In this document: positions 20,313 through 64,000 of the stretch, one piece after another
Layout: each line of letters begins with the position of its first letter
Numbering within the stretch: the first letter of the stretch is position 1
NCBI GenBank assembly: GCA_000438195.1
Contig: FR903078.1
Coordinates: forward strand, 73,845-137,844
From: Mycoplasma sp. CAG:776
GTDB lineage: Bacteria; Bacillota_I; Bacilli_A; RF39; UBA660
DNA: 64,000 nucleotides
Reading direction: 5' to 3'
Notes under the pieces: generated by a model
Databases searched by the model: none
Seen by the model: only the letters and a program-made list of their open reading frames with translations
What the model was told of the DNA's origin: nothing
Position numbers and translations under genes: made by a program

Positions 20313-22064
20313 CTATTCTAAGATAGCCTTTATTCTTCTAACCCCAGCACTGCTTGCTTCTTCTTTCGTAATTTTAAAGTGTCCTAATACATTCGTGTGT
20401 GAAACATGAGGACCTCCACATATTTCTTTAGAAACATTACCAATTTTATATACGTTTACAATATCAGCATATTTTTCAATAAACATTGCTTCTGCTCCAC
20501 TTTTTATCGCTTCTTCTTTGCTCATTGTTTCCATAGTGACTGGTAAATCTTCTTTAATCCAATTGTTTACTAATTGTTCTACTTTTTCTTTTTCTTCTTC
20601 TGTTAACTTATGATCGCAAGAAAAATCAAAACGCATTCTCTCTTCATTGATATTGCTTCCTTTTTGATGAACATCTTGGCCAATTACTGTTTTTAAGGCT
20701 GCATTTAATAAATGAGTCGCTGTATGATATTTTGTTTCGATCTCACTATGTCCCATTAATCCACCTTTAAATTTTCCTTTAGAGGCCGTACGTGAAAGCT
20801 CTTGATGAGCTTGAAATTTTTCTTGGAACCCTTTTATATCAACTTTTAAATTTTTTTCTTTTGCCATTTCTTCGGTTAATTCGATTGGAAAACCATATGT
20901 ATCATATAATTTAAAAGCGTTATCTTTATCGATTATATCTCCATTTAGATGGTTTAACAGTTTATCAAATTCTCTTAATCCTTTTTCTAATGTACGATTA
21001 AATTTTATATTTTCATTTTTTAATACTTCTAAAACCATATTTTTATTTTCTTTTATTTCAGGATAATAGCTTTCATATTTTTTTAATACTTCTAAAGCAA
21101 TAGGCTCCATCCAGTTTTCAAGTGTATTAATTCCTAAATTTTTAGCATGACGAATGGCTCTTCTAATTAATCTTCTTAAAATATAACCCTGATCTGTATT
21201 ACTTGGTTTAATCCCTGCACGGTCAGCACTAATAAAGACACTGGTACGAATATGATCAGCAATAATTCGCATACTTTTTTCATTTCCTTCATATGGCTTA
21301 CCACTAATTTTTTCTATTGAAGATATAATCTCTTTCCAAATAGAAGTTTTATAGTTATCATTTACCCCTTCTAAAACCGCTACTACTCTTTCTAAGCCCA
21401 TTCCTGTGTCAACATTTTTTTGCGATAATTCAGTAATTTTTCCGTTTTCATCTTTATGAAACTCCATAAAGACATTATTCCATATTTCTACCCAACGATC
21501 ATCTTTCGGATCAAATACTTTAGGAATCTCATCTTCGCTTCGAAAATAAAAAATTTCTGTATCTCCTCCGCACGGACCAGCCTCTCCAGCGATCCAAAAA
21601 TTATCTTCTTCTCCTAAATATGCTATTCTTTCTTCTTTAATTCCTAGACTCTTCCATATTTCAGCCGATACTTCGTCTCTTGGAATATCATTATTTCCTT
21701 TAAATACAGTAACAGCTAAACGTTCTTTAGGAATATTTAATACATTAGTTAAAAAATCAAAACTGTATTCAATACTTTCTTTTTTAAAGTAATCTCCTAG
21801 GCTCCAATTTCCAAGCATTTCGAAAAAAGTATGGTGAGTTTTATCACCTATTTCATCTAAATCAGTTAAACGTACACACTTTTGGGCATCACATAATCTA
21901 TTCCCTTGGGGATGTTTTTCTCCTAATAAATAAGGAATTAAAGGTTGCATGCCTGCAGTATTAAATAACACGGTTGGATCGTTTTCCGGAATTAATGGAG
22001 CACTAGGAATTTCCACATGGTTATGTTCAACAAAATATTCTATAAATTTATCTTTTAAGTTCAT
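20313..22064 (-). CDS. alaS: Alanyl-tRNA synthetase, short form lacking the C-Ala domain
   Basis: 583 aa; class II AlaRS N-terminus (DPTVLFNTAGMQP, FFEMLGNWSLGDYFK) and editing-domain motifs HTATHLL and CGGPHV. The protein ends soon after the editing domain. Confidence 0.9.
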   Translation of the reverse strand: MNLKDKFIEYFVEHNHVEIPSAPLIPENDPTVLFNTAGMQPLIPYLLGEKHPQGNRLCDAQKCVRLTDLDEIGDKTHHTFFEMLGNWSLGDYFKKESIEYSFDFLTNVLNIPKERLAVTVFKGNNDIPRDEVSAEIWKSLGIKEERIAYLGEEDNFWIAGEAGPCGGDTEIFYFRSEDEIPKVFDPKDDRWVEIWNNVFMEFHKDENGKITELSQKNVDTGMGLERVVAVLEGVNDNYKTSIWKEIISSIEKISGKPYEGNEKSMRIIADHIRTSVFISADRAGIKPSNTDQGYILRRLIRRAIRHAKNLGINTLENWMEPIALEVLKKYESYYPEIKENKNMVLEVLKNENIKFNRTLEKGLREFDKLLNHLNGDIIDKDNAFKLYDTYGFPIELTEEMAKEKNLKVDIKGFQEKFQAHQELSRTASKGKFKGGLMGHSEIETKYHTATHLLNAALKTVIGQDVHQKGSNINEERMRFDFSCDHKLTEEEKEKVEQLVNNWIKEDLPVTMETMSKEEAIKSGAEAMFIEKYADIVNVYKIGNVSKEICGGPHVSHTNVLGHFKITKEEASSAGVRRIKAILE

Positions 22065-22709: not shown

Positions 22710-23258
22710 TTAATTTAAACTAGCAATTAGTTCATCTTTTTTCATTGCAGAGTAACCTTTAACTCCTTGTTCTTTAGCAATAGCTTTAAGTTCGGTTAAA
22801 GTCATTTTGCTGTAGTCTTTTTCTTCTTTTACTAATTTGCTTGCTTCAGCTTTAACTTCTTTTTTGGGTTCTTCTAATTTTTTAGTTTTAGCAGGTACTT
22901 TACCATTTAAGGCTTCCTTAGAAATTTTAACTAATTCAGCGAAAGCACTAGGATTATCAATAGCCATTTCACTTAACATCTTACGATTGATTTCAATTCC
23001 AGCCTTAGCTAATCCATCCATAAATTTAGAGTAACTAATTTCGTTTTCACGACAAGCTGCATTAATTCTTGTAATCCATAATTTTCTAAAATTACGTTTA
23101 TTTTGTTTTCTGTCTCTAAATGCATAAACTCCACTATGGAATACTTGTTCTTGTGCTGTTTTATATAATCTATGTTTGCTTCCAAAATATCCTTTAGCTT
23201 CTTTTAATACTTTTCTTCTTCTTGTTTTGGAAACACTTCCACCTTTAACTCTTGTCAT
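22710..23258 (-). CDS. rplT: 50S ribosomal protein L20 with a roughly 64-aa C-terminal extension
   Basis: The N-terminal ~118 aa are canonical L20 ([24 protein letters not shown]...). An extra Lys/Glu-rich linker follows, ending in [31 protein letters not shown]. Confidence 0.95.
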
Positions 23259-23270
23259 TTTCTAACCTCC

Positions 23271-23465
23271 TTAGATAACAGATTTTAATCTGCTAGCTTC
23301 TCCTTTTCCTAAAATACCTTTATTTCTTCTTTGACGTACTTGTTTTGCTGAATCTTTGTTTGTCTTATGATTTCCGTTTGATTTTTTGTAAGTTAAAGTA
23401 CCATTCTTTTTCTTTGTTAAAACTTTGCTACTTGCTTTATGTGTTTTTTGTTTGCACTTTGCCAT
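23271..23465 (-). CDS. rpmI: 50S ribosomal protein L35
   Basis: 64 aa, highly basic, located between infC and rplT. Confidence 0.9.
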   Translation of the reverse strand: MAKCKQKTHKASSKVLTKKKNGTLTYKKSNGNHKTNKDSAKQVRQRRNKGILGKGEASRLKSVI

Positions 23466-23482
23466 AATAAATCCTCCTACTA

Positions 23483-23998
23483 TTATTTTTTTGGTGCTAA
23501 TAGCATAAACATTTGTCTACCATCTAATTTAGGCTCAGCCTCAATGCTTGAAACCTCACTTAAACTATCCGCAAATCTTAGTAAAACATCGCGTCCTAAT
23601 TCTGGTCTAGCCATTTGACGGCCTTTAAAACGAATAAATGCTTTAATTCGATGCCCTTTTATCAAGTACTCCTTCGCATTTCTAACACGAGTTTCAAAAT
23701 CATGAATATCAATCGTTGTCGATAAGCGATATTCTTTTAATTCTTTATTTGTTTCTCTTTGTTTCTTTTGCGCTTCTTTTAATTTTTTTTGACGTTCATA
23801 ACGGTATTTGTTGTAGTCCATAATTTTTCCTACAGCTACTTTACCATTATCATTCATTAAAACTAAATCTAAGCCTGCATATCTAGATAAAGTTAAAGCA
23901 TCCTCTATTTTTTTTAGCCCCATTTGCTCTCCATTAGGGCCAATTACCATTAGTTCTTCTACTTTGATTTGCTCATTAATTGGTAACTCTTTATTCAC
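23483..23998 (-). CDS. infC: Translation initiation factor IF-3
   Basis: 171 aa; INEQIKVEELMVIGPNGEQMG and the C-terminal domain. The track start is GTG at 23998; an in-frame ATA at 24007 has better RBS spacing. Confidence 0.9.
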   Translation of the reverse strand: MNKELPINEQIKVEELMVIGPNGEQMGLKKIEDALTLSRYAGLDLVLMNDNGKVAVGKIMDYNKYRYERQKKLKEAQKKQRETNKELKEYRLSTTIDIHDFETRVRNAKEYLIKGHRIKAFIRFKGRQMARPELGRDVLLRFADSLSEVSSIEAEPKLDGRQMFMLLAPKK

Positions 23999-24029
23999 AC
24001 TTGCTATACTTACGCACCTCCATATAATT

Positions 24030-24187
24030 AAAAAGATAGAATAAATTATATTCTACCTTAAAAAACACATTAATAATCTTCACTATTATGGCTTTTTACC
24101 TATGAATATTCTTCATCAGGTGGAATATAATTCACTTTCCTCTTTCAATTTCTATATTATTATATCTTTATTATATTCATTTGTCAA
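24030..24187 (-). promoter_or_regulatory. infC operon promoter plus leader with attenuator hairpin (candidate L20 leader)
   Basis: TTGACA (24182-24187), a 17-nt spacer, then TATAAT (24159-24164). The leader contains the hairpin TAGAATA-TAATT-TATTCTA followed by a U-run (24035-24057) ahead of the infC RBS. Confidence 0.5.
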
Positions 24188-25628: not shown

Positions 25629-26039
25629 TTAAAACATTTTATTCTTTATTTTTGTTATAATTCTTTGTTTATTATAATAAAAATTTAAATCTACTATTTC
25701 ATTATTATTTAAATTATTAGAAGTAGATAATACCATTTCATAATATGTTGTATAATTTTGCTCATTTGCTTTTAATTCTTTTTTTATGATTTCATATTTT
25801 AAATTTTTATTATTGATTGTAATTAAAGAAAAATCTAAGTTGGTTGGTATAGCGGTAGTAATTGTACAAATATTGGTACAGCTAACAATTCCTTTAGCTT
25901 GATAGTGATCATAGACTTCTACTTTATTCATATAAGATACTAGAGTCAATAGAATTACAATAATAAAAATGACTATTAAAAATCCCAGTTTTGGTTTTAT
26001 TTTTAAGAATGCTATTTTATTATTAAAAATATCTAACAT
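25629..26039 (-). CDS. Membrane-anchored accessory protein of the bacteriocin exporter (very short, HlyD/LcnD position)
   Basis: 136 aa; one N-terminal TM (LGFLIVIFIIVILLTLVSY) then a predicted beta-rich domain. Overlaps the ABC gene by 7 nt. Confidence 0.6.
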   Translation of the reverse strand: MLDIFNNKIAFLKIKPKLGFLIVIFIIVILLTLVSYMNKVEVYDHYQAKGIVSCTNICTITTAIPTNLDFSLITINNKNLKYEIIKKELKANEQNYTTYYEMVLSTSNNLNNNEIVDLNFYYNKQRIITKIKNKMF

Positions 26040-28087
26040 AACTCTCCTAGACGAATAATCTTTGTAAATTTATCCTCAACATTTTTATGGGTAACATAAA
26101 TTAAAGTATTATTTTTAAAATACGTAAAAATATTGTCTAAAATTTCTTTTTCCATATTAACATTCACTTCACTTAATGCTTCATCTAAGATAATTATCTT
26201 AGCCTTTTTTAGCAAGGCTCTTGCTAGAATAATCCTTTGCTTTTCTCCTCCACTTAAGTTATTTAGAGAAGCATTTATAATAGTGTTATATCGATTTGGT
26301 CTTTTATTTATGATTTCTTCTAATTTACAAATTTTACATACTTGTTTAAATTTTTCATCTGAAATATTTCGGAAGCATATGATATTCTCGCGAATTGTTC
26401 CTGTAAAAAGTTTTTCATTTTGGCCTACATATAGGATATTTTCTCTGATAGCTTTTAAACTATAATCACATTCACTCGTATTATTAAATTCTATATTTCC
26501 AGAATAAGTGCCTAAACTTCGATAAATAAGTTTGCAGATGGTACTTTTACCACTTCCCGATGGACCACTTAACAAAACTTTTTCTTTACTTTTTATAGCG
26601 AAATTCACTTTATTTATTATTTTATTAAATAAATCATAAGAATAAGTTAAGTCTTTTACTTCAATATTTGGATCTATTAAATGCTTTAACCCTCCTTGTT
26701 CTTTTTCTATTTCAGTTGCTAAAAATTCACTTAATTTACTAAATGAGGCTTTTAAATAATTATATTTTGGCATTAAATCAACTAATTTCTTTACTGGATT
26801 AAATAAATAGAGAATAACACTATTAAAAGTAACTAAACTTAATAGTTCTAATTCCCCTTTATAAATTAAATAAATTCCTAAAGTTGTAATCATAAATAAT
26901 CCGACTTCATAAATAAAATTCTTCAATAGTTCAATTATATTTAAAATGCTCATAAAAGAAAAATTGCTTTTTAGCATTAATATTAATTTATTTTCAATTC
27001 GGTATATAAATTCTCGAACTAAATTTAAATTTTTAATACTAAAATTCATGTCTACATTTTCAATTAATGTTGTGTTGAAATTTGTTGTTGTTTCTATATT
27101 CTCTTTTACTTTATGATAGATCACTTTACTAAATAAAAGTCCTACTATTAAATAAATAATAATTATAAAACAAAGAAGAAAAAATAATTTACTATTTATT
27201 AAAAATAGTGTTACTATCGCACCAAATATCAAAATCGTATTTAAAATTAAGGTAGCAAAAATTTCAGAAAATAAATTTTTTGTATTACTTAATTCATCAA
27301 TTCTGGTTACTATTTCTCCAGTTGTACGATTTTGAATAAATTTCAAAGGGAGTTTAAATATATGCTCTAAGAACATAGAAAATAATTCGGTGTCTAGATT
27401 TTTGTTAAGATAATTGAGGTAATAGGTTTTTATATAATTTATGATAATTTTAAAAAGAAGTATAATAAAAAAGAGAATTACGATAAATTTAATGAATTTA
27501 GCTTCTTGCCCTTCTTGAATACAAGATATACTTATTTGAAAATAAAAATTTCCAATTATGGTTAAAAGCATTAAAACAATATTAGTAATTATGATTTTTA
27601 AAAACAAATATTTATGTTTTATTAATAATTTACCAAATAATCCTACTATGGAAAGTTCTTTGGTATATCTTAATATATTATTACTAGGTGTTGCTAATAT
27701 TAAAATGTTATCCCAAATATTCAGAAATTCCTGAATTAACATTTTTACTTTTCCTTTAGCCGGGTCCATAAGATAAACATATTTTTCGTTTGCTTTATAG
27801 ATTACTACAAAATGTTGTAGCCCATTTGTTAGTTGAACATGAGCTATAGCAGGGAAATAAATATTTTCGTCTAAAATGTTTTCTGCTTTTACTCCAATCG
27901 CATCAAATCCATAACCACATAAAGCTTTTATTATATGAAATGCTGTTGTTCCGTTCATATTTGTACAAGTATCATCCCTTACTTTCTCTAATGGAACATA
28001 GCCACCATAATACTTTAAAATGGATTCTATACAACAAGCGCCACAATCTTTTAAATCACGTTGTTTTACTACTTCTATCTTAGGCAT
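26033..28087 (-). CDS. Bacteriocin-processing ABC exporter with N-terminal C39 peptidase domain
   Basis: 684 aa; C39 catalytic Cys in QRDLKDCGACCIESILKYYGG, with His (LQHFVVIYK) and Asp (YLMDPAKG). Six TM helices. Walker A GPSGSGKST, signature LSGGEKQR, Walker B IIILDEALS. Confidence 0.92.
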   Translation of the reverse strand: MPKIEVVKQRDLKDCGACCIESILKYYGGYVPLEKVRDDTCTNMNGTTAFHIIKALCGYGFDAIGVKAENILDENIYFPAIAHVQLTNGLQHFVVIYKANEKYVYLMDPAKGKVKMLIQEFLNIWDNILILATPSNNILRYTKELSIVGLFGKLLIKHKYLFLKIIITNIVLMLLTIIGNFYFQISISCIQEGQEAKFIKFIVILFFIILLFKIIINYIKTYYLNYLNKNLDTELFSMFLEHIFKLPLKFIQNRTTGEIVTRIDELSNTKNLFSEIFATLILNTILIFGAIVTLFLINSKLFFLLCFIIIIYLIVGLLFSKVIYHKVKENIETTTNFNTTLIENVDMNFSIKNLNLVREFIYRIENKLILMLKSNFSFMSILNIIELLKNFIYEVGLFMITTLGIYLIYKGELELLSLVTFNSVILYLFNPVKKLVDLMPKYNYLKASFSKLSEFLATEIEKEQGGLKHLIDPNIEVKDLTYSYDLFNKIINKVNFAIKSKEKVLLSGPSGSGKSTICKLIYRSLGTYSGNIEFNNTSECDYSLKAIRENILYVGQNEKLFTGTIRENIICFRNISDEKFKQVCKICKLEEIINKRPNRYNTIINASLNNLSGGEKQRIILARALLKKAKIIILDEALSEVNVNMEKEILDNIFTYFKNNTLIYVTHKNVEDKFTKIIRLGELC

Positions 28088-32541: not shown

Positions 32542-33486
32542 TTACTTTAATGCACTAATTAATTCATCTTTTTTCATTGTACTATAACCTTTTATACTAC
32601 GTTCTTTAGCTATAGCTTTTAATTCTGTTAAAGTCATATCTTCTAATGCTTTTTCATTTGATTCAGTTACTTCAACTTCTTTTTCTTCTACAACTTCAAC
32701 AGCTTTTGTTTCTTCTTTTCCTTTTGTTTCTTCTTTAATTAACTCATCCATTTTAATCTCTTTTGCTGACTTTTTATCCTCTTCTGTTACATAATCTACC
32801 ATTTCTAAATTACGAGATTCACAAATAGCATTATTAAGTACACCAAGAATTACTTTAACACTTCTAACAGCATCATCATTTCCTGGAATGACAAAATCAA
32901 CATCATCTGGATCACAGTTTGTATCTACAATACCAAATACTGGTATTCTAAGTTTTCTTGCTTCTCTAATTGCATTAATTTCTTTTTTAGGATCTACTAT
33001 AATTAAAGCATTTGGAAGTTTATTCATATCACGAATACCACATAAAATTTTATTTAACTTATCGTATTCTTTCTTTAATCCAATTACTTCTTTCTTTGGT
33101 AAAACATCAAATTTACCATCACGTTCCATATTTTCAATTTCTTCAAGTCTTTTTACTCTTCTTCTGATTGTTCTGAAATTAGTTAGTGTTCCTCCTAGCC
33201 ATCTTTCAGTTACATAATAAGACTTACTTCTTTCTGCTTCTTCTTTGGCAGCTTCTTGAGCTTGTTTTTTAGTTCCAACGAACAAGAAAGTACCTCCGTT
33301 ATCCGCAATTTTTTTCACTTCAACATAAGCTTCTTCAAGAAGTTTTGTTGTCTTTTCAAGATCGATAATATAAATATCTTCTCTTGCTCCAAAAATGTAT
33401 TCTTTCATCTTTGGATTCCATCTTTTTGTTTGATGTCCAAAATGAACACCTGCTTCTAATAAATAACTCATAGAAACAACGGCCAT
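32542..33486 (-). CDS. rpsB: 30S ribosomal protein S2 with a roughly 80-aa C-terminal extension
   Basis: The first ~235 aa are canonical S2 ([19 protein letters not shown]...). An acidic linker follows, ending in [31 protein letters not shown]. Confidence 0.95.
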
Positions 33487-35250: not shown

Positions 35251-35363
35251 ACTTCTTTTCAGTACTCTTTAATATTACACTAATTTTTTTTCTAAGTCAA
35301 TCATTTTTATTTATTTTGTATAGAATTTTAAATTTTTCTAATAATAATCTTAGGTGGAATATT

Positions 35364-36797
35364 ATGGAAAATAAAATTGTAAAAAGAATAAAAAATGAGT
35401 TTCAAAATACACCCGATTTGGTTACTAAAAATATTCGATTATCTTTACTTGATACGGTTACTGTTTTATATTTAGAAACCGTTAGTTCTAGTGATAAGGT
35501 TAATGATTATATTTTAAAAAATTTAAGTAGCTTTAGCAGTTTTAAAAATACCAAGGCAGTAGATATTGCTAGCATTCTTCCAAGTCCTAATACAAAAGAG
35601 ATTAAAAACATTGATGAAGTAGAATACTTTATTACAAATGGATTTACGATTATTGTTCATAAAAATACTATTTTAGCAGTTGAAACAAGAGCAGATATTA
35701 ACCGGGGAATTCCAACTCCTGCTACAGAAGCTGCTCCTAATGGGCCAAAAGACGCTTTTACTGAAAATTATCAAATTAACCTTGGACTAATCAAAAAAAG
35801 ATTAAAGTCCAGCAAACTTAAAACAGATGAATTTACGATTGGTAGAAAAACTTTAACTAAAGTGGGGCTTTTATATTTTCAGGACATTACGGATGAAGAC
35901 ACTATACGTTTAGTAACAGAAAAACTAAATAAAATTGATATTGATGGTGTTTTAGATTCGAGTAGTATTGGGCAATTAATTACCGAGGAAGATAAAACAC
36001 ATTTTCCAACTTATCAAGTAACCGAACGTCCTGATTTTGTGGCACGGGCTTTATTAGAAGGAAAGATTGTTTTGGTTGTAGATACTACTCCTTTTGCGAT
36101 TATTCTTCCAGCTTTCTTTATTGACTTTATCAATCCAGGTATGGATAATTATCATAAAAGTAAAAATATTAATTTTCTAAAAATTGTACGTTTTGCTTGC
36201 TTTTTTCTATCTATGACTGTTCCAGCTATTTATATTGCTTTAGTTAATTATAATCAAGAAACTATTCCTACTAACTTACTTGTTAGTTTTAGTATTCAAA
36301 GAGATGGGGTTCCCTTCCCCTCTATCGTTGAAGTTTTGATTATGCTTTTTGTTTGTGAAATGCTTAGAGAAAGTGATCTTCGATTCCCTAATACTTATGG
36401 TAGTGCTATTTCTATTTTAGGAGCTTTAGTCTTAGGAGATGCAGCTGTATCCGCAGGAATTGTATCCCCTATTACCATTATTATTATTGCTCTTACCTTT
36501 ATGGCTAGTTTGATTTTTACCGAAATTGAAGTATCAAATGCCTTACGAAATTTACGTTTTATCTTTTTATTTGCCGCAGCTTTTTATGGTATTTTAGGTC
36601 TTGTCTTTGCGACATTTTATTTCCTTATTCGTATCAATAAAATGCATTCTTTTGGTAAACCCTATTTTTATCCTCTTGTGCCTTTTGATAAAACTTACTT
36701 TTTTAAAACAGCTCTTAAAGCACCTCTTAGGAAAGATAAACATCGTAGTTCAATCCTTTCACAAAAAAATCAAACAAAACAAGGAGGAAATATATGA
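35364..36797 (+). CDS. Spore germination protein, GerA/GerK A-subunit family
   Basis: About 477 aa from ATG 35364; typical motifs (GFTIIV..., RGIPTPATEAAPNGPKDAFTEN, C-terminal TM cluster). Confidence 0.88.
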   Translation: MENKIVKRIKNEFQNTPDLVTKNIRLSLLDTVTVLYLETVSSSDKVNDYILKNLSSFSSFKNTKAVDIASILPSPNTKEIKNIDEVEYFITNGFTIIVHKNTILAVETRADINRGIPTPATEAAPNGPKDAFTENYQINLGLIKKRLKSSKLKTDEFTIGRKTLTKVGLLYFQDITDEDTIRLVTEKLNKIDIDGVLDSSSIGQLITEEDKTHFPTYQVTERPDFVARALLEGKIVLVVDTTPFAIILPAFFIDFINPGMDNYHKSKNINFLKIVRFACFFLSMTVPAIYIALVNYNQETIPTNLLVSFSIQRDGVPFPSIVEVLIMLFVCEMLRESDLRFPNTYGSAISILGALVLGDAAVSAGIVSPITIIIIALTFMASLIFTEIEVSNALRNLRFIFLFAAAFYGILGLVFATFYFLIRINKMHSFGKPYFYPLVPFDKTYFFKTALKAPLRKDKHRSSILSQKNQTKQGGNI

Positions 36798-59448: not shown

Positions 59449-62400
59449 TTAAGAGAAAAGCTTTTTAAAGAATGATTTTACTTTTTTCTTTACAGAATTA
59501 TATGTTTTCTTTACAAAAGACGCAGCTTTTTTTACTGTTTTTCCTATATCTGTAGCTATACTTGTTGTTGTTGAGACTATTGTGTTCTTAGCAATTTTCT
59601 TTGTATAGTTACCTGTAAATGAAGTTTTAATTTTTGTAGGTCTTATCCATCCCTTATTTAATGGAACTATTTTATCTGCAAATTTTCCTGTTGCCATTCC
59701 AATTGTTCCATTTACTGCTGTATCCACTGCAATTTCTTTTAATGAATTTCCTGAAATTGTACTCTCAATAAATGAACTTCCATAATTACTTAGTATAGTC
59801 CCTCCAACAGTAAAACCTAATGGTGTGGTTGCAATTAATCCTGAAAATGCTCCACCTAAAGCAGAGGCGCCTACTTCTTTCCAATAATCTGTACCACTTG
59901 CAGAACTCGTAAGCATAGTAGACAAAGCAGATATTGCTCCACCTATAAGTGCTCCAGCTATCTGGAACCAAAATTCCCCTTCTACATCTATCCTACTTGT
60001 TGGGTTATTTCCTGTATAAGCATACATATTGCTAGAATTAACATCTTGTTCTGTATCTATGTAAATATCGGCACTAATAAATCTTCCCCACTCTGGATTA
60101 TAGTATCTACTATTTAAATAATATAACTTTGTTTCATTATCATAATAGTATGATCTATATCTAAATGGATTAATATATCCTATATGAGATGTATCAGTAA
60201 TAATAGTGTTGTTATTATCTTTAATAGATATTAATTTTCCCCATGAGTTATATTCATAACTACATAATAAATTATAATTACTATCTGTTATTCCTATGAT
60301 ATCTTCTTGCATATTCTTAATATAATAATATATTGTATCATTATATTTAAATCCTATTAATTTGTTGTTATTGTCTCTAATATAATATGTTTTATTATTT
60401 CCAGTTGTTTCAAAGATTATATTTCTTGCTTCATAATAATAATTTGTTATTATGTTATTAACTGTCTTTCCTAATCTTAAACTTTCATTATCATATCTAT
60501 ATGTAATATTTAAATTATTATCATAATCATTATAACTTCTCATCTCTTTGGCATTACCCCAAGTTAGTGTTTTGTTTCCTATGGTTAATGGATTACCTAA
60601 TTCATCATAAGTAATTGTTTCATTGTTATATTTTGTTAATTGATCTTCCCAATTAGTGTTATTATATTCATAAGTATCAGTATGTAAGAGATTATAAGTA
60701 TTTAATTCATATTCTTGTTTCTTTAAGATATTTCCCGCATTATCATAAGTATATCTTATTGTTTTATTTAAACTATAGTTATCTTCTTTAATCAGTTCAT
60801 TAAAGTTATCATATTCATAATGATTGATTAATTTTTTATTTATATAAATATTGGTGATATTATATAAATTATCATAATCATATTCATATAAATCATTATT
60901 TATCTTCATTGATTTTAATACTGTAGATGTTTTATTACCGTTTGTTATGTAGGTATATTCTACTTTGTTATTACCGTTTATATCTTTACTTATTAACCTT
61001 CCTAGATAATCATAACTATAATTTAGATTATTATTATCAAATGTTACTTTGGTTATTGCATCATCTTTGTTGTATTCGAAAGTTACTGTTTCTTTATCAT
61101 TTAATGTATAATCTTTTTTAATAATATTATTATTTGCATTATAATCATATTCAATCATAAAATCATTCGCTACGTATTTACTTATTCTGGAAGATAAGTC
61201 ATAATAAAAATCATAGTTTTCAGCATTACTTGTTATTTTAGCTAAATTTCCTAAATTATCATAATGATATGTATAAATTGTATCATCATTATTAATTGAT
61301 TTAAGTCTATCTAATTCGTCATAAGTATAGTTTGTTATATCCCCATTTCCAAAAGTTGTTTTGATTAAATTTCCGTTTTTTTCTTCATACTCATTACTAA
61401 CTAAATTGTTATTGTTAATATTAATTGTTAAAGTATTTAAGAAATTGTCATAAGTAAAATTATATTCTTTATTATTCGATGTAATTTTCGTTAGTGCATT
61501 ATTGTCATTATAAGTATAGTTTACTTCTTTTTCTTCTTTCTTTACTTTGGTTATTTGCTCTTTATCATTATAAGTATAGTAAGTTGTTATGTTATTAGCG
61601 TCTGTAACACTATTAGTAAGTCCATTTATTTCATTAACATCGTAACTTGTTTCTTTACCTAAAGAGTCAATTGTTTTAGTTGTAAATCTACCATCATTAG
61701 TATATTCAGCTTTTGATTCAATAAATAAGCGTGTATCATTATCTTCAAAGTAGAACTCTTCATCTGATTTAGATGTATCTGTAGTTTTTATTGTTATTTT
61801 ATCATTTATATTCGCTAAATTATAGTTTTCTAAATCAATTGATGTTCCTCCTTCTTCATCTGTTTTGATATATTTTAGTTTTGGTGTAATTAAATAACTA
61901 TTATTATCATTTAGATGTAAGTTAAATAATGTTTCCTCTCCTGTTTGTTTTGTTAAACTAATATTATTGTTTAAATATGTTAAATATTTATCTCCTGTTT
62001 TAATACGGTAATATTCTCCTTCTTTTAGTAAAGTAAAGGCATCATGACTACAAGTATTTTCTTTTAAATTAATTTCATTGGTTAAAAAATCACAATCCCA
62101 GTATTTTTTAGAACCTTTTAGGCGAATATAATAGTTTTTTTGATCTATAATATCTTGATCGGGATTTACATTATTAATGAGTGTTTTGATTGGGTTACCA
62201 AATTCATCATATTCAATTTCATTTGATATTCCTGATGGTGATATTCCTTTTAATATACGGTCTGTAACATTATTATCATATTCAAACTTAAAATTATTAC
62301 CTAAAGGATTAAACATACTAATTAATTGATTATTTTCGTCATAAGTAAAAGTTGTATTCGTTCCATCTGCATTCCTAATCTTATCTAAATTACCAGTTTC

Positions 62401-64000
62401 ACTATTATTATAATTATAATTTTGCTCTATATCTTTTGATAAAGATATATTAGCTATATATAAATTATTAGCATTATAATTTGAAAAGAAAGTTAAAGCA
62501 ATGGTATCATAGTTATATAAGCTATCAGCAGCAAAAGGCGCAGAAAAATATTGCCATTCATCATTGTGAGCTGGAAGTCCTGATGGAACTAACCCATATC
62601 CTTCTTCTTCGGGTATATTGTTATAATAGAAACTTAATAAGACTGAGTTATTATATTCGGTTCCTGTTCCTCCTTTGGATAATCCTTCATTTTTATACCA
62701 AAATGATAAATTATATAAATCTCCTATTCGATCTTCTGATAAATCTCCTATACCGTTTACTTTTAACTTTGTAGATACTGCAATATCGTAATCAGGATTA
62801 GAAGATATTTTTAAAGCTTTTACACCATTATTTAATGTTACTACATCAATAGCTGTTGAGGCATCATTTCCATTTCTATCTGTTGCTGATACTTCCCAGT
62901 CTGTTAAATCATTATGGAAATCTCCATTATCAAGCATATTATAGTAATTAGCTATTCTTCCTTCTTCTAATTGAACATCATCTAAGTATGCTGTAGTGTC
63001 TTTATCTCCATAAATACTAATAGACATGTGCCCTGTTTCTCCATCTGTTGGATACTCTCCTGTTACGCTATATCTAGTAAATTCTTCATTTGGTGGTATT
63101 ATTATGCTATCTAAAACGTAAGTCTTGTTTACTCCCCTCTTTTCTAAATCCATTGTTAGAGGTTTATCATTTTTAAAATAACCACTAAAAGTATAAGTTT
63201 TACCACTTGGTGGAAAATTTAGTTGTTCAAAATAGCAATAGTTACTAAATTTCAAACTATAGTTTCCTGTCCTTTTTTCTTCCGTTGTTCTTGTACCCCA
63301 AAATGGTGTATTTTCTTCTTCAAAGCTACTATTTTTCAATAAATTTTTAGTATATTTTACTGCTAGAATTTCATTTTTTATTTTATTGTTTGCTTTATTT
63401 ATATCTTCAAAATAATTTCCATTACTTTCTTTATATACGGTATTATCTTCATAAACTGTTCCTTTACCATAAGCTTTATTTAAATCAGCTTCACTACTTA
63501 AATTAGTTATTCCTATAGTATTTCCTTGTTCATTAAAAAGATAAGTATTATATCTTTCTTTATTATCTTTTACTCTTGTTACTAAAAAACCATATTCAAA
63601 TTCTAAGGAAGTTCCTTCTTCACTATTTAATCCATATTCTGTTATTTTCTTTATTTTATATGGACTTACATCATAATATGTAAACCCTTTACTTAGGCCA
63701 TTTACATCTGTTATTTTTTCTAATAAATTATTACTATTATAAGTAAAACTTGTTGTACCATTTTTCGTTATCATATTCATTATCTTATTATTAGAATAAT
63801 TTATAGTAGTAGTTTTACTATCACTCGTAATTACCATATTATTATCATTATAAGTAATATTAATATTAGAGTTATTGGCATCTGTTACCTTATTAATTCT
63901 ATTATTTGTATCATAAGTAATTGATACTGTATCTTCATTAGTATTAATTAATTTAGTTAAATAATAAATATTATTATTTAATGTAAATATATATTTATTA
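59449..64000 (-). CDS. Rhs/YD-repeat polymorphic toxin (WapA-like), partial: N-terminus lies beyond the window end
   Basis: More than 1500 open codons. The frame stays open from 63837 to 64000 (…ITYDTNNRINKVTDANNSNINITYNDNN-MVITSDS). There are dozens of YD repeats (Y.YD..GN), CBM-like inserts, and the Rhs core end RYYNPEWGRFISAD...YAYTGNNPTSRIDVEGEF, followed by a 173-aa C-terminal domain. Confidence 0.9.
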   Translation of the reverse strand, partial: NKYIFTLNNNIYYLTKLINTNEDTVSITYDTNNRINKVTDANNSNINITYNDNNMVITSDSKTTTINYSNNKIMNMITKNGTTSFTYNSNNLLEKITDVNGLSKGFTYYDVSPYKIKKITEYGLNSEEGTSLEFEYGFLVTRVKDNKERYNTYLFNEQGNTIGITNLSSEADLNKAYGKGTVYEDNTVYKESNGNYFEDINKANNKIKNEILAVKYTKNLLKNSSFEEENTPFWGTRTTEEKRTGNYSLKFSNYCYFEQLNFPPSGKTYTFSGYFKNDKPLTMDLEKRGVNKTYVLDSIIIPPNEEFTRYSVTGEYPTDGETGHMSISIYGDKDTTAYLDDVQLEEGRIANYYNMLDNGDFHNDLTDWEVSATDRNGNDASTAIDVVTLNNGVKALKISSNPDYDIAVSTKLKVNGIGDLSEDRIGDLYNLSFWYKNEGLSKGGTGTEYNNSVLLSFYYNNIPEEEGYGLVPSGLPAHNDEWQYFSAPFAADSLYNYDTIALTFFSNYNANNLYIANISLSKDIEQNYNYNNSETGNLDKIRNADGTNTTFTYDENNQLISMFNPLGNNFKFEYDNNVTDRILKGISPSGISNEIEYDEFGNPIKTLINNVNPDQDIIDQKNYYIRLKGSKKYWDCDFLTNEINLKENTCSHDAFTLLKEGEYYRIKTGDKYLTYLNNNISLTKQTGEETLFNLHLNDNNSYLITPKLKYIKTDEEGGTSIDLENYNLANINDKITIKTTDTSKSDEEFYFEDNDTRLFIESKAEYTNDGRFTTKTIDSLGKETSYDVNEINGLTNSVTDANNITTYYTYNDKEQITKVKKEEKEVNYTYNDNNALTKITSNNKEYNFTYDNFLNTLTININNNNLVSNEYEEKNGNLIKTTFGNGDITNYTYDELDRLKSINNDDTIYTYHYDNLGNLAKITSNAENYDFYYDLSSRISKYVANDFMIEYDYNANNNIIKKDYTLNDKETVTFEYNKDDAITKVTFDNNNLNYSYDYLGRLISKDINGNNKVEYTYITNGNKTSTVLKSMKINNDLYEYDYDNLYNITNIYINKKLINHYEYDNFNELIKEDNYSLNKTIRYTYDNAGNILKKQEYELNTYNLLHTDTYEYNNTNWEDQLTKYNNETITYDELGNPLTIGNKTLTWGNAKEMRSYNDYDNNLNITYRYDNESLRLGKTVNNIITNYYYEARNIIFETTGNNKTYYIRDNNNKLIGFKYNDTIYYYIKNMQEDIIGITDSNYNLLCSYEYNSWGKLISIKDNNNTIITDTSHIGYINPFRYRSYYYDNETKLYYLNSRYYNPEWGRFISADIYIDTEQDVNSSNMYAYTGNNPTSRIDVEGEFWFQIAGALIGGAISALSTMLTSSASGTDYWKEVGASALGGAFSGLIATTPLGFTVGGTILSNYGSSFIESTISGNSLKEIAVDTAVNGTIGMATGKFADKIVPLNKGWIRPTKIKTSFTGNYTKKIAKNTIVSTTTSIATDIGKTVKKAASFVKKTYNSVKKKVKSFFKKLFS

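Follow-up and report, generated by a model that had tools for sequence, protein, structure and literature searches.

Genetic composition of the rplT and rpsB regions

We analyzed a 64-kb stretch of DNA, here referred to as the window, in which the two ribosomal protein genes rplT and rpsB end in the same short coding module. The gene rplT (ribosomal protein bL20) is the third gene of an operon, and the gene order infC-rpmI-rplT with infC and rpmI directly upstream of rplT was confirmed. The features of this region were:

24159-24187, minus strand: operon promoter TTGACA-17-TATAAT (12/12 consensus), found upstream of infC by a promoter scan
24022-24143, minus strand: possible divergent L20 leader (Rfam L20_leader, sub-threshold)
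23483-23998, minus strand: infC, clear Pfam matches to IF3_N and IF3_C
23271-23465, minus strand: rpmI, Ribosomal_L35p with 28.1 bits, just below the cutoff of 28.9
22710-23258 including the stop codon, minus strand: rplT, ribosomal protein bL20, ORF of 182 aa, Pfam Ribosomal_L20
22905-23258, minus strand: canonical core of bL20, residues 1-118, based on Pfam match, conservation and AlphaFold
22806-22904, minus strand: Lys/Glu-rich linker of bL20, residues 119-151, of variable sequence and low pLDDT
22713-22805, minus strand: C-terminal Rho_N/HeH module of bL20, residues 152-182, Rho_N with 41.5 bits

The Rfam model L20_leader matched over its full length and at the expected position with 16.1 bits (E 1.4) versus a gathering score of 58.7, and this sub-threshold match may represent a divergent L20 autoregulatory leader.

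The Pfam domain Ribosomal_L20 (PF00453) covered residues 3-109 of bL20 with 155.5 bits (profile positions 1-107 of 107), and the match to Rho_N began at residue 150. In the full-length AlphaFold model the pLDDT was approximately 76-91 over most of the core, dropped below 50 at linker residues 124-145 and was approximately 82 in the module. The linker carried a net charge of +4 (residues 119-147). The extension comprises 64 residues past the 118-aa core, which exceeds the criterion of >20 residues used for ribosomal protein extensions (PMC9534751). An earlier note on this DNA had described L20 as unusually long, with a Lys/Glu-rich linker between core and module. The linker is indeed seen at residues 119-151, and the 182 aa represent a real extension, since related L20 proteins without a tail measured only 117-125 aa among 80 fetched genome loci.

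The second gene, rpsB, is located in a different operon and is followed by tsf:

32542-33486 including the stop codon, minus strand: rpsB, ribosomal protein uS2, ORF of 314 aa, Pfam Ribosomal_S2
32638-32817, minus strand: Glu-rich linker of uS2, residues 224-283, net charge -10, based on composition
32545-32637, minus strand: C-terminal Rho_N/HeH module of uS2, residues 284-314, Rho_N with 42.3 bits
31647-32519, minus strand: tsf (EF-Ts, by inspection of the translation), co-oriented and 22 bases downstream of rpsB

The gene order rpsB-tsf was confirmed and tsf is preceded by a Shine-Dalgarno sequence AAGGAGG. Ribosomal_S2 (PF00318) matched residues 9-223 of uS2 with 324.2 bits (profile positions 1-215 of 216). 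The extension of approximately 90 residues past the end of this Pfam domain is likewise longer than the 20 residues of PMC9534751, and its linker differed in sequence and length between relatives.

Domain identity of the shared module

Comparison of the last 31 residues of L20 and S2 showed 24/31 identical amino acids and 72/93 identical bases, by which the values that the earlier note gave for the module translations at 22713-22805 and 32545-32637 were reproduced exactly. An HMM built from both modules and used in a six-frame scan recovered only the L20 and S2 ORFs (E 1.2e-24 and 7.4e-23, respectively), and no third copy was found in the 64-kb window. As the next best score in the window had an E-value of ~1, a chance match of the two modules is excluded.

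The Pfam domain Rho_N (PF07498, cutoff 24.9 bits) matched L20 with 41.5 and S2 with 42.3 bits, and the isolated modules with 44.3 and 43.4 bits, respectively. SAP (PF02037) stayed below its gathering score of 23.9, with 18.7 bits for L20, 16.7 for S2 and 23.1 for the S2 module alone; on the level of profile scores, this is as expected for a sister family of Rho_N. A profile search of the PDB with 22 module sequences found Rho of two bacteria (7oqh, 2.8e-6; 8hsj, 4e-6), the SAP domain of Ku70 (1jjr, 2e-4) and Thermotoga Rho (3l0o).

The AlphaFold model of a 36-residue module alone reached a mean pLDDT of 88.7 and showed a helix-extended loop-helix arrangement with helices at 8-18 and 28-35. The net charge of the module was only +1 to +3. 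With Foldseek, the top PDB matches of this model were Rho N-terminal domains (TM 0.82, rmsd 1.0 A over 34 residues), with E >1 for the very short query; the SAP domains of Tho1 and FAN1 followed, also with non-significant E-values for the short query. The Rho_N/SAP-type relationship proposed in the earlier note thus holds, both tails lying above the Rho_N cutoff and the sequence and fold matches being Rho N-termini and then SAP domains.

Judged from the profile matches and the predicted fold, the module is a stand-alone C-terminal version of the N-terminal subdomain of Rho, a domain of ~33 residues from the Pfam family Rho_N, of which SAP and HeH are sister families. Neither the OB-fold RNA-binding domain of Rho (PF07497) nor any ATPase family, including the RecA type, was matched on L20 or S2 by Pfam, and nothing but the stop codon follows the module. 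L20 and S2 were therefore rejected as Rho proteins.

Conservation of the tails

Among the matches listed, PF07498 was present together with PF00453 in 120/120 L20 relatives and together with PF00318 in 120/120 S2 relatives, so that the survey of rplT and rpsB in relatives that had been suggested earlier found both tails conserved. Other public assemblies also encode proteins identical to the S2 of the window, one of which (P0124) was found on 193 contigs. For several relatives the number of independent contigs, taken from several sources, exceeded 100; P0048, for example, was found on 182.

An alignment of 39 L20 relatives was used to compare the three regions of the protein. The core had a mean pairwise identity of 88% with 1% gaps and the module of 83% with 0% gaps. 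For the linker the identity was 46% with 34% gaps, and indels were nearly confined to it. Furthermore, S2 proteins whose cores were just 67-97% identical to that of the window still carried the module. Because the module is conserved like the core and lacks indels, because the linker drifts and because the module persists on diverged S2 cores, the sequences indicate that the folded domain itself is under purifying selection and would be kept on a flexible tether.

Could the tails be an artefact, either of chimeric assembly, of a sequencing frameshift or of a small ORF that is translated separately? Certain singleton metagenome proteins with these tails do appear chimeric. However, uninterrupted ORFs were found in every relative among the matches listed, on many independent contigs and in several databases, and mis-assembled or chimeric tails, one of the conditions under which the earlier note would have been wrong, are refuted by this conservation on hundreds of independent contigs. 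A separate translation of the module is unlikely as well, because the Met of the module has no Shine-Dalgarno sequence, in contrast to tsf with its AAGGAGG, and because more distant relatives have Lys or Leu in place of this Met. An internal start at this Met was rejected for the same reasons, and we regard the probability of an artefact as practically negligible. On the basis of the conservation, we regard both C-terminal tails as genuine and as vertically inherited.

Distribution in related genomes and alternative L20 tails

The closest genomes were assemblies of uncultured gut Bacilli/'Tenericutes' from humans, rabbits, goats, chickens and mice, including Clostridium sp. CAG:609, Candidatus Ventrenecus, Ca. 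Onthocola and Ca. Caccenecus. We take them to be the RF39-type group.

The L20 C-terminus was classified in 80 fetched genome loci with L20, two of which were truncated by contig ends. Core, linker and module were present in 44/80 loci and a canonical L20 of 117-125 aa in 12/80. In another 22/80 loci (L029, L031-L037, L041-L045, L049, L055-L059, L061-L063 and L066; among the genomes CAG:302, CAG:956 and CAG:914) the module was absent and L20 ended in a strongly positive tail of 37-80 aa rich in Lys, Thr and Ala (KKTTTAKK...). The mean charge of the basic tails was approximately +10, a mean which takes in five tails with a divergent module.

A further search started from a module-bearing L20 of Breznakia (Erysipelotrichia). 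Here, L20 proteins with cores 86-90% identical to it carried PAAKK repeats resembling histone H1/HC2 instead, one of them from the cultured Breznakia sp. PFB2-8. Further relatives in this search had the module, the module and a basic tail, or almost no tail. Basic tail and module occurred together in P0411 and P0417, whereas the close relative P0427 was almost tailless with 128 aa. Taking the 22 loci together with the sister-lineage proteins P0425, P0428, P0429 and P0432-P0434, of which P0432 is found in Breznakia isolates, the H1-like basic tails measured ~40-125 aa. The Pfam family HC2 matched the basic tails with 31.9-35 bits, below its cutoff of 40, and 'H1-like' therefore refers to composition only. 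Taken from these sequences, the C-terminus of L20 seems to be a hot spot for appendages.

The earlier proposal of domain shuffling is supported by these data in that related L20 cores differ in whether they bear the module, a basic tail, the two together or none; the event is old, however, and not a recent duplication.

A scan of metagenomes for the DNA pattern encoding KGYSxMKK(D/E)(D/E) yielded at least 119 loci and, among those listed, 80 were S2 and 10 were L20. Where both genes were present in one fetched locus (n=10), the module was found on S2 in 10/10 and on L20 in 8/10, and the other two L20 proteins had basic tails. By these counts the module appears to be more widespread on S2 than on L20. 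No other protein than L20 and S2 carried the module in ~1.2 Mb of related genome loci, a sample that is biased to the neighbourhood of L20.

In several related lineages, among them those with both genes in one fetched locus, rpsB is located directly downstream of rplT (L038, L046, L050, L051, L053, L059, L060, L092, L127 and L192), while the two genes are ~9.3 kb apart in the window.

Origin and other carriers of the module

For the 24 residues shared by the two modules of the window, 18 codons were identical versus 14.6 expected from the AT-biased codon usage, and 64 bases matched versus 61 expected, so that the similarity of the DNA only slightly exceeds the prediction. Each module type also had its own signature among the listed relatives. 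At module position 13, Q was found in 100/120 L20 and R in 118/120 S2 proteins, and the junction before the module read YSK in 95/120 L20 and LED in 86/120 S2 proteins. The identity of L20 and S2 modules within a genome was in no clear excess over that across genomes. A recent duplication or gene conversion was therefore rejected. Since the distinct signatures hold across 120 relatives each, the sequences argue for an old acquisition, after which the L20 and S2 modules descended separately within the clade.

A profile of the module found 3784 cluster representatives with E<=1e-3 among 1.84 billion searched. The best 150 of these 3784 relatives were all assigned to Rho_N by Pfam, 74 of them also to SAP and 20 also to HeH. 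Judged by this spread of matches, the Rho_N domain is highly promiscuous. The motif KGYSxMKK(D/E)(D/E)L was also located N-terminally in genuine Rho proteins on metagenome contigs, and restriction-modification-like proteins of 900-1017 aa (L115, L161, L172 and L176, by sequence inspection) end in the same module subtype. In addition, a module with 55-76% identity to the L20 tail is encoded in 91 phage records, mostly of Staphylococcus and Streptococcus phages (e.g. Staphylococcus phages 29, 80 and 52A and Streptococcus phage IPP24). The respective genes were annotated as 'transcriptional terminator', 'Arc-like repressor' or hypothetical. From these similarities, phages may move the domain between proteins, and both phages and Rho itself are plausible donors of the module.

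Fusions of the tail to membrane anchors, DnaJ, Hsp20 and the SRP54 N domain were considered as clues to function and rejected as probable chimeras. All 10/10 small tail-fusion proteins that were checked were singleton clusters on contigs of 0.5-4 kb.

Putative function of the tails

In established ribosome structures, the cores of bL20 and uS2 end on solvent-exposed surfaces of the 50S and 30S subunits, respectively. The globular C-terminal domain of bL20 is found on the 50S surface, and uS2 faces the solvent on the 30S subunit, close to the mRNA exit and the docking site of S1. Each tail would consist of a disordered, charged linker (~30 aa in L20, ~60 aa in S2) that ends in the folded helix-extended loop-helix domain. 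Since both C-termini are exposed, each subunit would display one module on a flexible arm. We propose that the module binds nucleic acid while tethered and with low specificity, that single-stranded RNA (mRNA or nascent RNA) would be favoured and that DNA is a possible ligand. Binding could enrich RNA locally at the ribosome surface or hold the subunits on transcripts or the nucleoid.

Several points favour this reading. The helix-extended-helix domains of this family are associated with nucleic acids, and Rho itself, restriction-modification-like proteins and phage genes annotated as Arc-like repressors are among the other carriers of the module. The site at the end of L20 alternates or combines the module with histone-like basic tails, which would be explained most simply if the binding of polyanions were the selected property. 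Nucleic-acid binding is also favoured by the case of Arabidopsis RHON1, whose last 40 aa form a C-terminal Rho-N domain after an acidic stretch. In gel shifts this domain bound single-stranded RNA, including 16S and 23S rRNA fragments; single-stranded RNA was preferred and double-stranded RNA was not bound, and RHON1 associates with RNase E as well (PMC3458557). With ribosomal subunits of both kinds carrying the module, a shared ligand is plausible.

On the other hand, the modest charge of the module (+1 to +3) counts against binding, and the acidic linker of S2 (-10) would oppose the binding of nucleic acid nearby. The main RNA-binding site of Rho is the OB fold and not the N-terminal helix bundle. 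These three points leave room for a role in protein docking or in cis. What the sequences and models show is to which family the module belongs, how it is predicted to fold, how conserved and widespread it is and that basic tails can take its place; that it is displayed on the surface, binds nucleic acid and has a role in the cell is inferred. To the complete proposal, genuine inherited tails with surface-displayed modules for tethered nucleic-acid binding of low specificity, we would give about an even chance.

Alternatively, the module might be a docking unit for proteins, which either recruits a common partner such as an RNase, a helicase, RNA polymerase or a chaperone to each subunit, or organises polysomes or hibernating ribosome pairs by module-module or module-ribosome contacts. 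The module consensus of L20 and S2 differs at ~6/31 positions despite separate descent, which fits a shared ligand of any type, and the HeH/LEM group includes protein binders; HeH, SAP and LEM domains can mediate protein-protein contacts. RHON1, too, associates with a protein, RNase E (PMC3458557). But the swap with compositionally simple, Lys-rich tails at L20 is hard to square with the recognition of a specific protein, and the fusions of the module to chaperones and membrane anchors that might speak for docking come from singleton clusters on 0.5-4 kb contigs and are probably chimeric. We consider a docking unit rather unlikely. The reading in which the module is a SAP-like binder of double-stranded DNA, anchoring the subunits to the AT-rich nucleoid so that translation proceeds beside transcription, overlaps with the main proposal and differs from it just in the preferred ligand. 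It agrees with the weak SAP matches of the tails and the HeH scores in some relatives, with the SAP domains of Ku70 and FAN1 among the sequence and fold matches and with the G+C content of the window of 27%. Moreover, the module is also found on restriction-modification-like enzymes and on phage genes annotated as repressors, and H1-like tails are classic DNA binders. Against these points stand a Rho_N score clearly above that for SAP, which stays under its cutoff, and the preference of the RHON1 Rho-N for single-stranded RNA, with double-stranded RNA left unbound (PMC3458557). Double-stranded DNA as the main ligand is in our opinion unlikely.

Finally, the tails might have no ligand at all and serve as aids for solubility or assembly in cis or as entropic bristles, or they might be the tolerated accretion of a promiscuous mobile domain. 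Extensions of bacterial ribosomal proteins are common and mostly without known function (PMC9534751), the domain is both promiscuous (3784 representatives, E<=1e-3) and phage-borne, and certain close L20 relatives such as P0427 with 128 aa are almost tailless. Yet the module is conserved like the ribosomal core and free of indels while its linker drifts, and it persists on S2 cores 67-97% identical to that of the window, which indicates purifying selection on the module, and we find a ligand-free tail quite improbable.

Returning to tethered nucleic-acid binding, it can be extended to the more speculative idea that the C-termini of bL20 and uS2 are evolutionary sockets for interchangeable nucleic-acid-binding arms, either of the Rho_N/HeH or of the H1-like type, which in these gut Bacilli would tether the ribosome itself to nascent transcripts or the nucleoid. 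If so, free subunits would be retained where transcription takes place by the single arm that each of them carries, or the arms may instead replace mRNA capture of the S1 type or the factor-mediated coupling of transcription and translation. In this general form the idea is a long shot.

Comparison with known systems

The module resembles the N-terminal helix bundle of Rho (PF07498) in its profile score above the cutoff, the predicted helix-extended loop-helix and the motif KGYSxMKK(D/E)(D/E)L. Unlike in Rho, it stands alone at the C-terminus of ribosomal proteins, with no OB fold and no ATPase. With RHON1 it shares the location of Rho-N at the extreme C-terminus, and in both RHON1 and the S2 tail a negative stretch precedes the domain. 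However, RHON1 is a plant-specific, non-ribosomal chloroplast protein and partner of RNase E whose RNA binding was assayed, while the L20 and S2 tails are known from sequence and model. SAP (PF02037) and HeH/LEM-like domains (PF12949; Ku70, Tho1, FAN1) have the same helix-extended loop-helix fold and gave weak sequence and fold matches, but the SAP scores of L20 and S2 were below the cutoff and the SAP/HeH families are mainly eukaryotic binders of DNA or chromatin.

The ribosomal protein extensions of the type described for Mycoplasma pneumoniae are terminal, longer than 20 aa, largely disordered, of unknown function and widespread in bacteria (PMC9534751). The L20 and S2 tails are likewise terminal, >20 aa and largely disordered, but they end in a conserved folded domain and are found on one protein of each subunit. 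The Lys-rich tails resembling histone H1/HC2 occupy the same C-terminal position of L20 in sister lineages, sometimes together with the module. They are low-complexity basic repeats, in contrast to the folded module and to the L20 linker of the window, which is of mixed Lys/Glu composition (+4).

Rho_N as a mobile domain and extensions of ribosomal proteins are already known, and in public protein collections the L20 and S2 proteins bear the two domains as automatic Pfam labels. In our literature searches we found no account of ribosomal proteins fused to Rho_N. What is new is that a folded, promiscuous domain, and not a mere disordered tail, is located on one protein of each subunit. In our analysis the tails are a conserved, lineage-specific decoration of the ribosome whose module probably binds nucleic acid.

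This is an unusually clean case of an extension, with a defined folded domain, one per subunit, that can be swapped with histone-like tails at L20. The module is conserved over hundreds of sequence clusters from uncultured human and animal gut Bacilli, and it offers a concrete, testable hypothesis for such extensions, namely the tethering of ribosomes to nucleic acid. A peptide of ~35 aa is short enough to be produced and tested with no need for a culture of the organism. Confirmation of the function would reveal a new way in which ribosomes are specialised in a prevalent lineage of gut bacteria.

Other genes in the window

Some further genes of the window deserve mention:

20313-22064, minus strand: alanyl-tRNA synthetase-like ORF, 583 aa
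22061-22591, minus strand: deoxynucleotide-monophosphate-kinase-like gene, 176 aa (Pfam DNMK, 31.5 bits), directly after rplT
26033-28087, minus strand: ABC exporter with C39 peptidase domain, of the bacteriocin-export type
35316-36797, plus strand: spore germination protein of the GerA family, 463.9 bits
56609-57722, minus strand: phage-type holin adjoining an M23 peptidase with peptidoglycan-binding domain
59449-63837, minus strand: 1462-aa protein with RHS repeats

The DNMK-like gene, whose last four bases are shared with the start of the alaS-like ORF, is an unusual neighbour of a core translation operon. Alanyl-tRNA synthetase typically has ~870 aa. By inspection, the N-terminal region and the editing motifs are present in the alaS-like ORF and the C-terminal domain is apparently missing. 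The ABC exporter is located between both ribosomal operons.

The GerA-family gene is the first of three co-oriented ORFs that extend to 38892. From the gene content, this row suggests that the small gut bacterium with 27% G+C forms spores. The holin and the M23 peptidase may represent a lysis cassette or a prophage remnant, and the protein with RHS repeats is possibly a polymorphic toxin.
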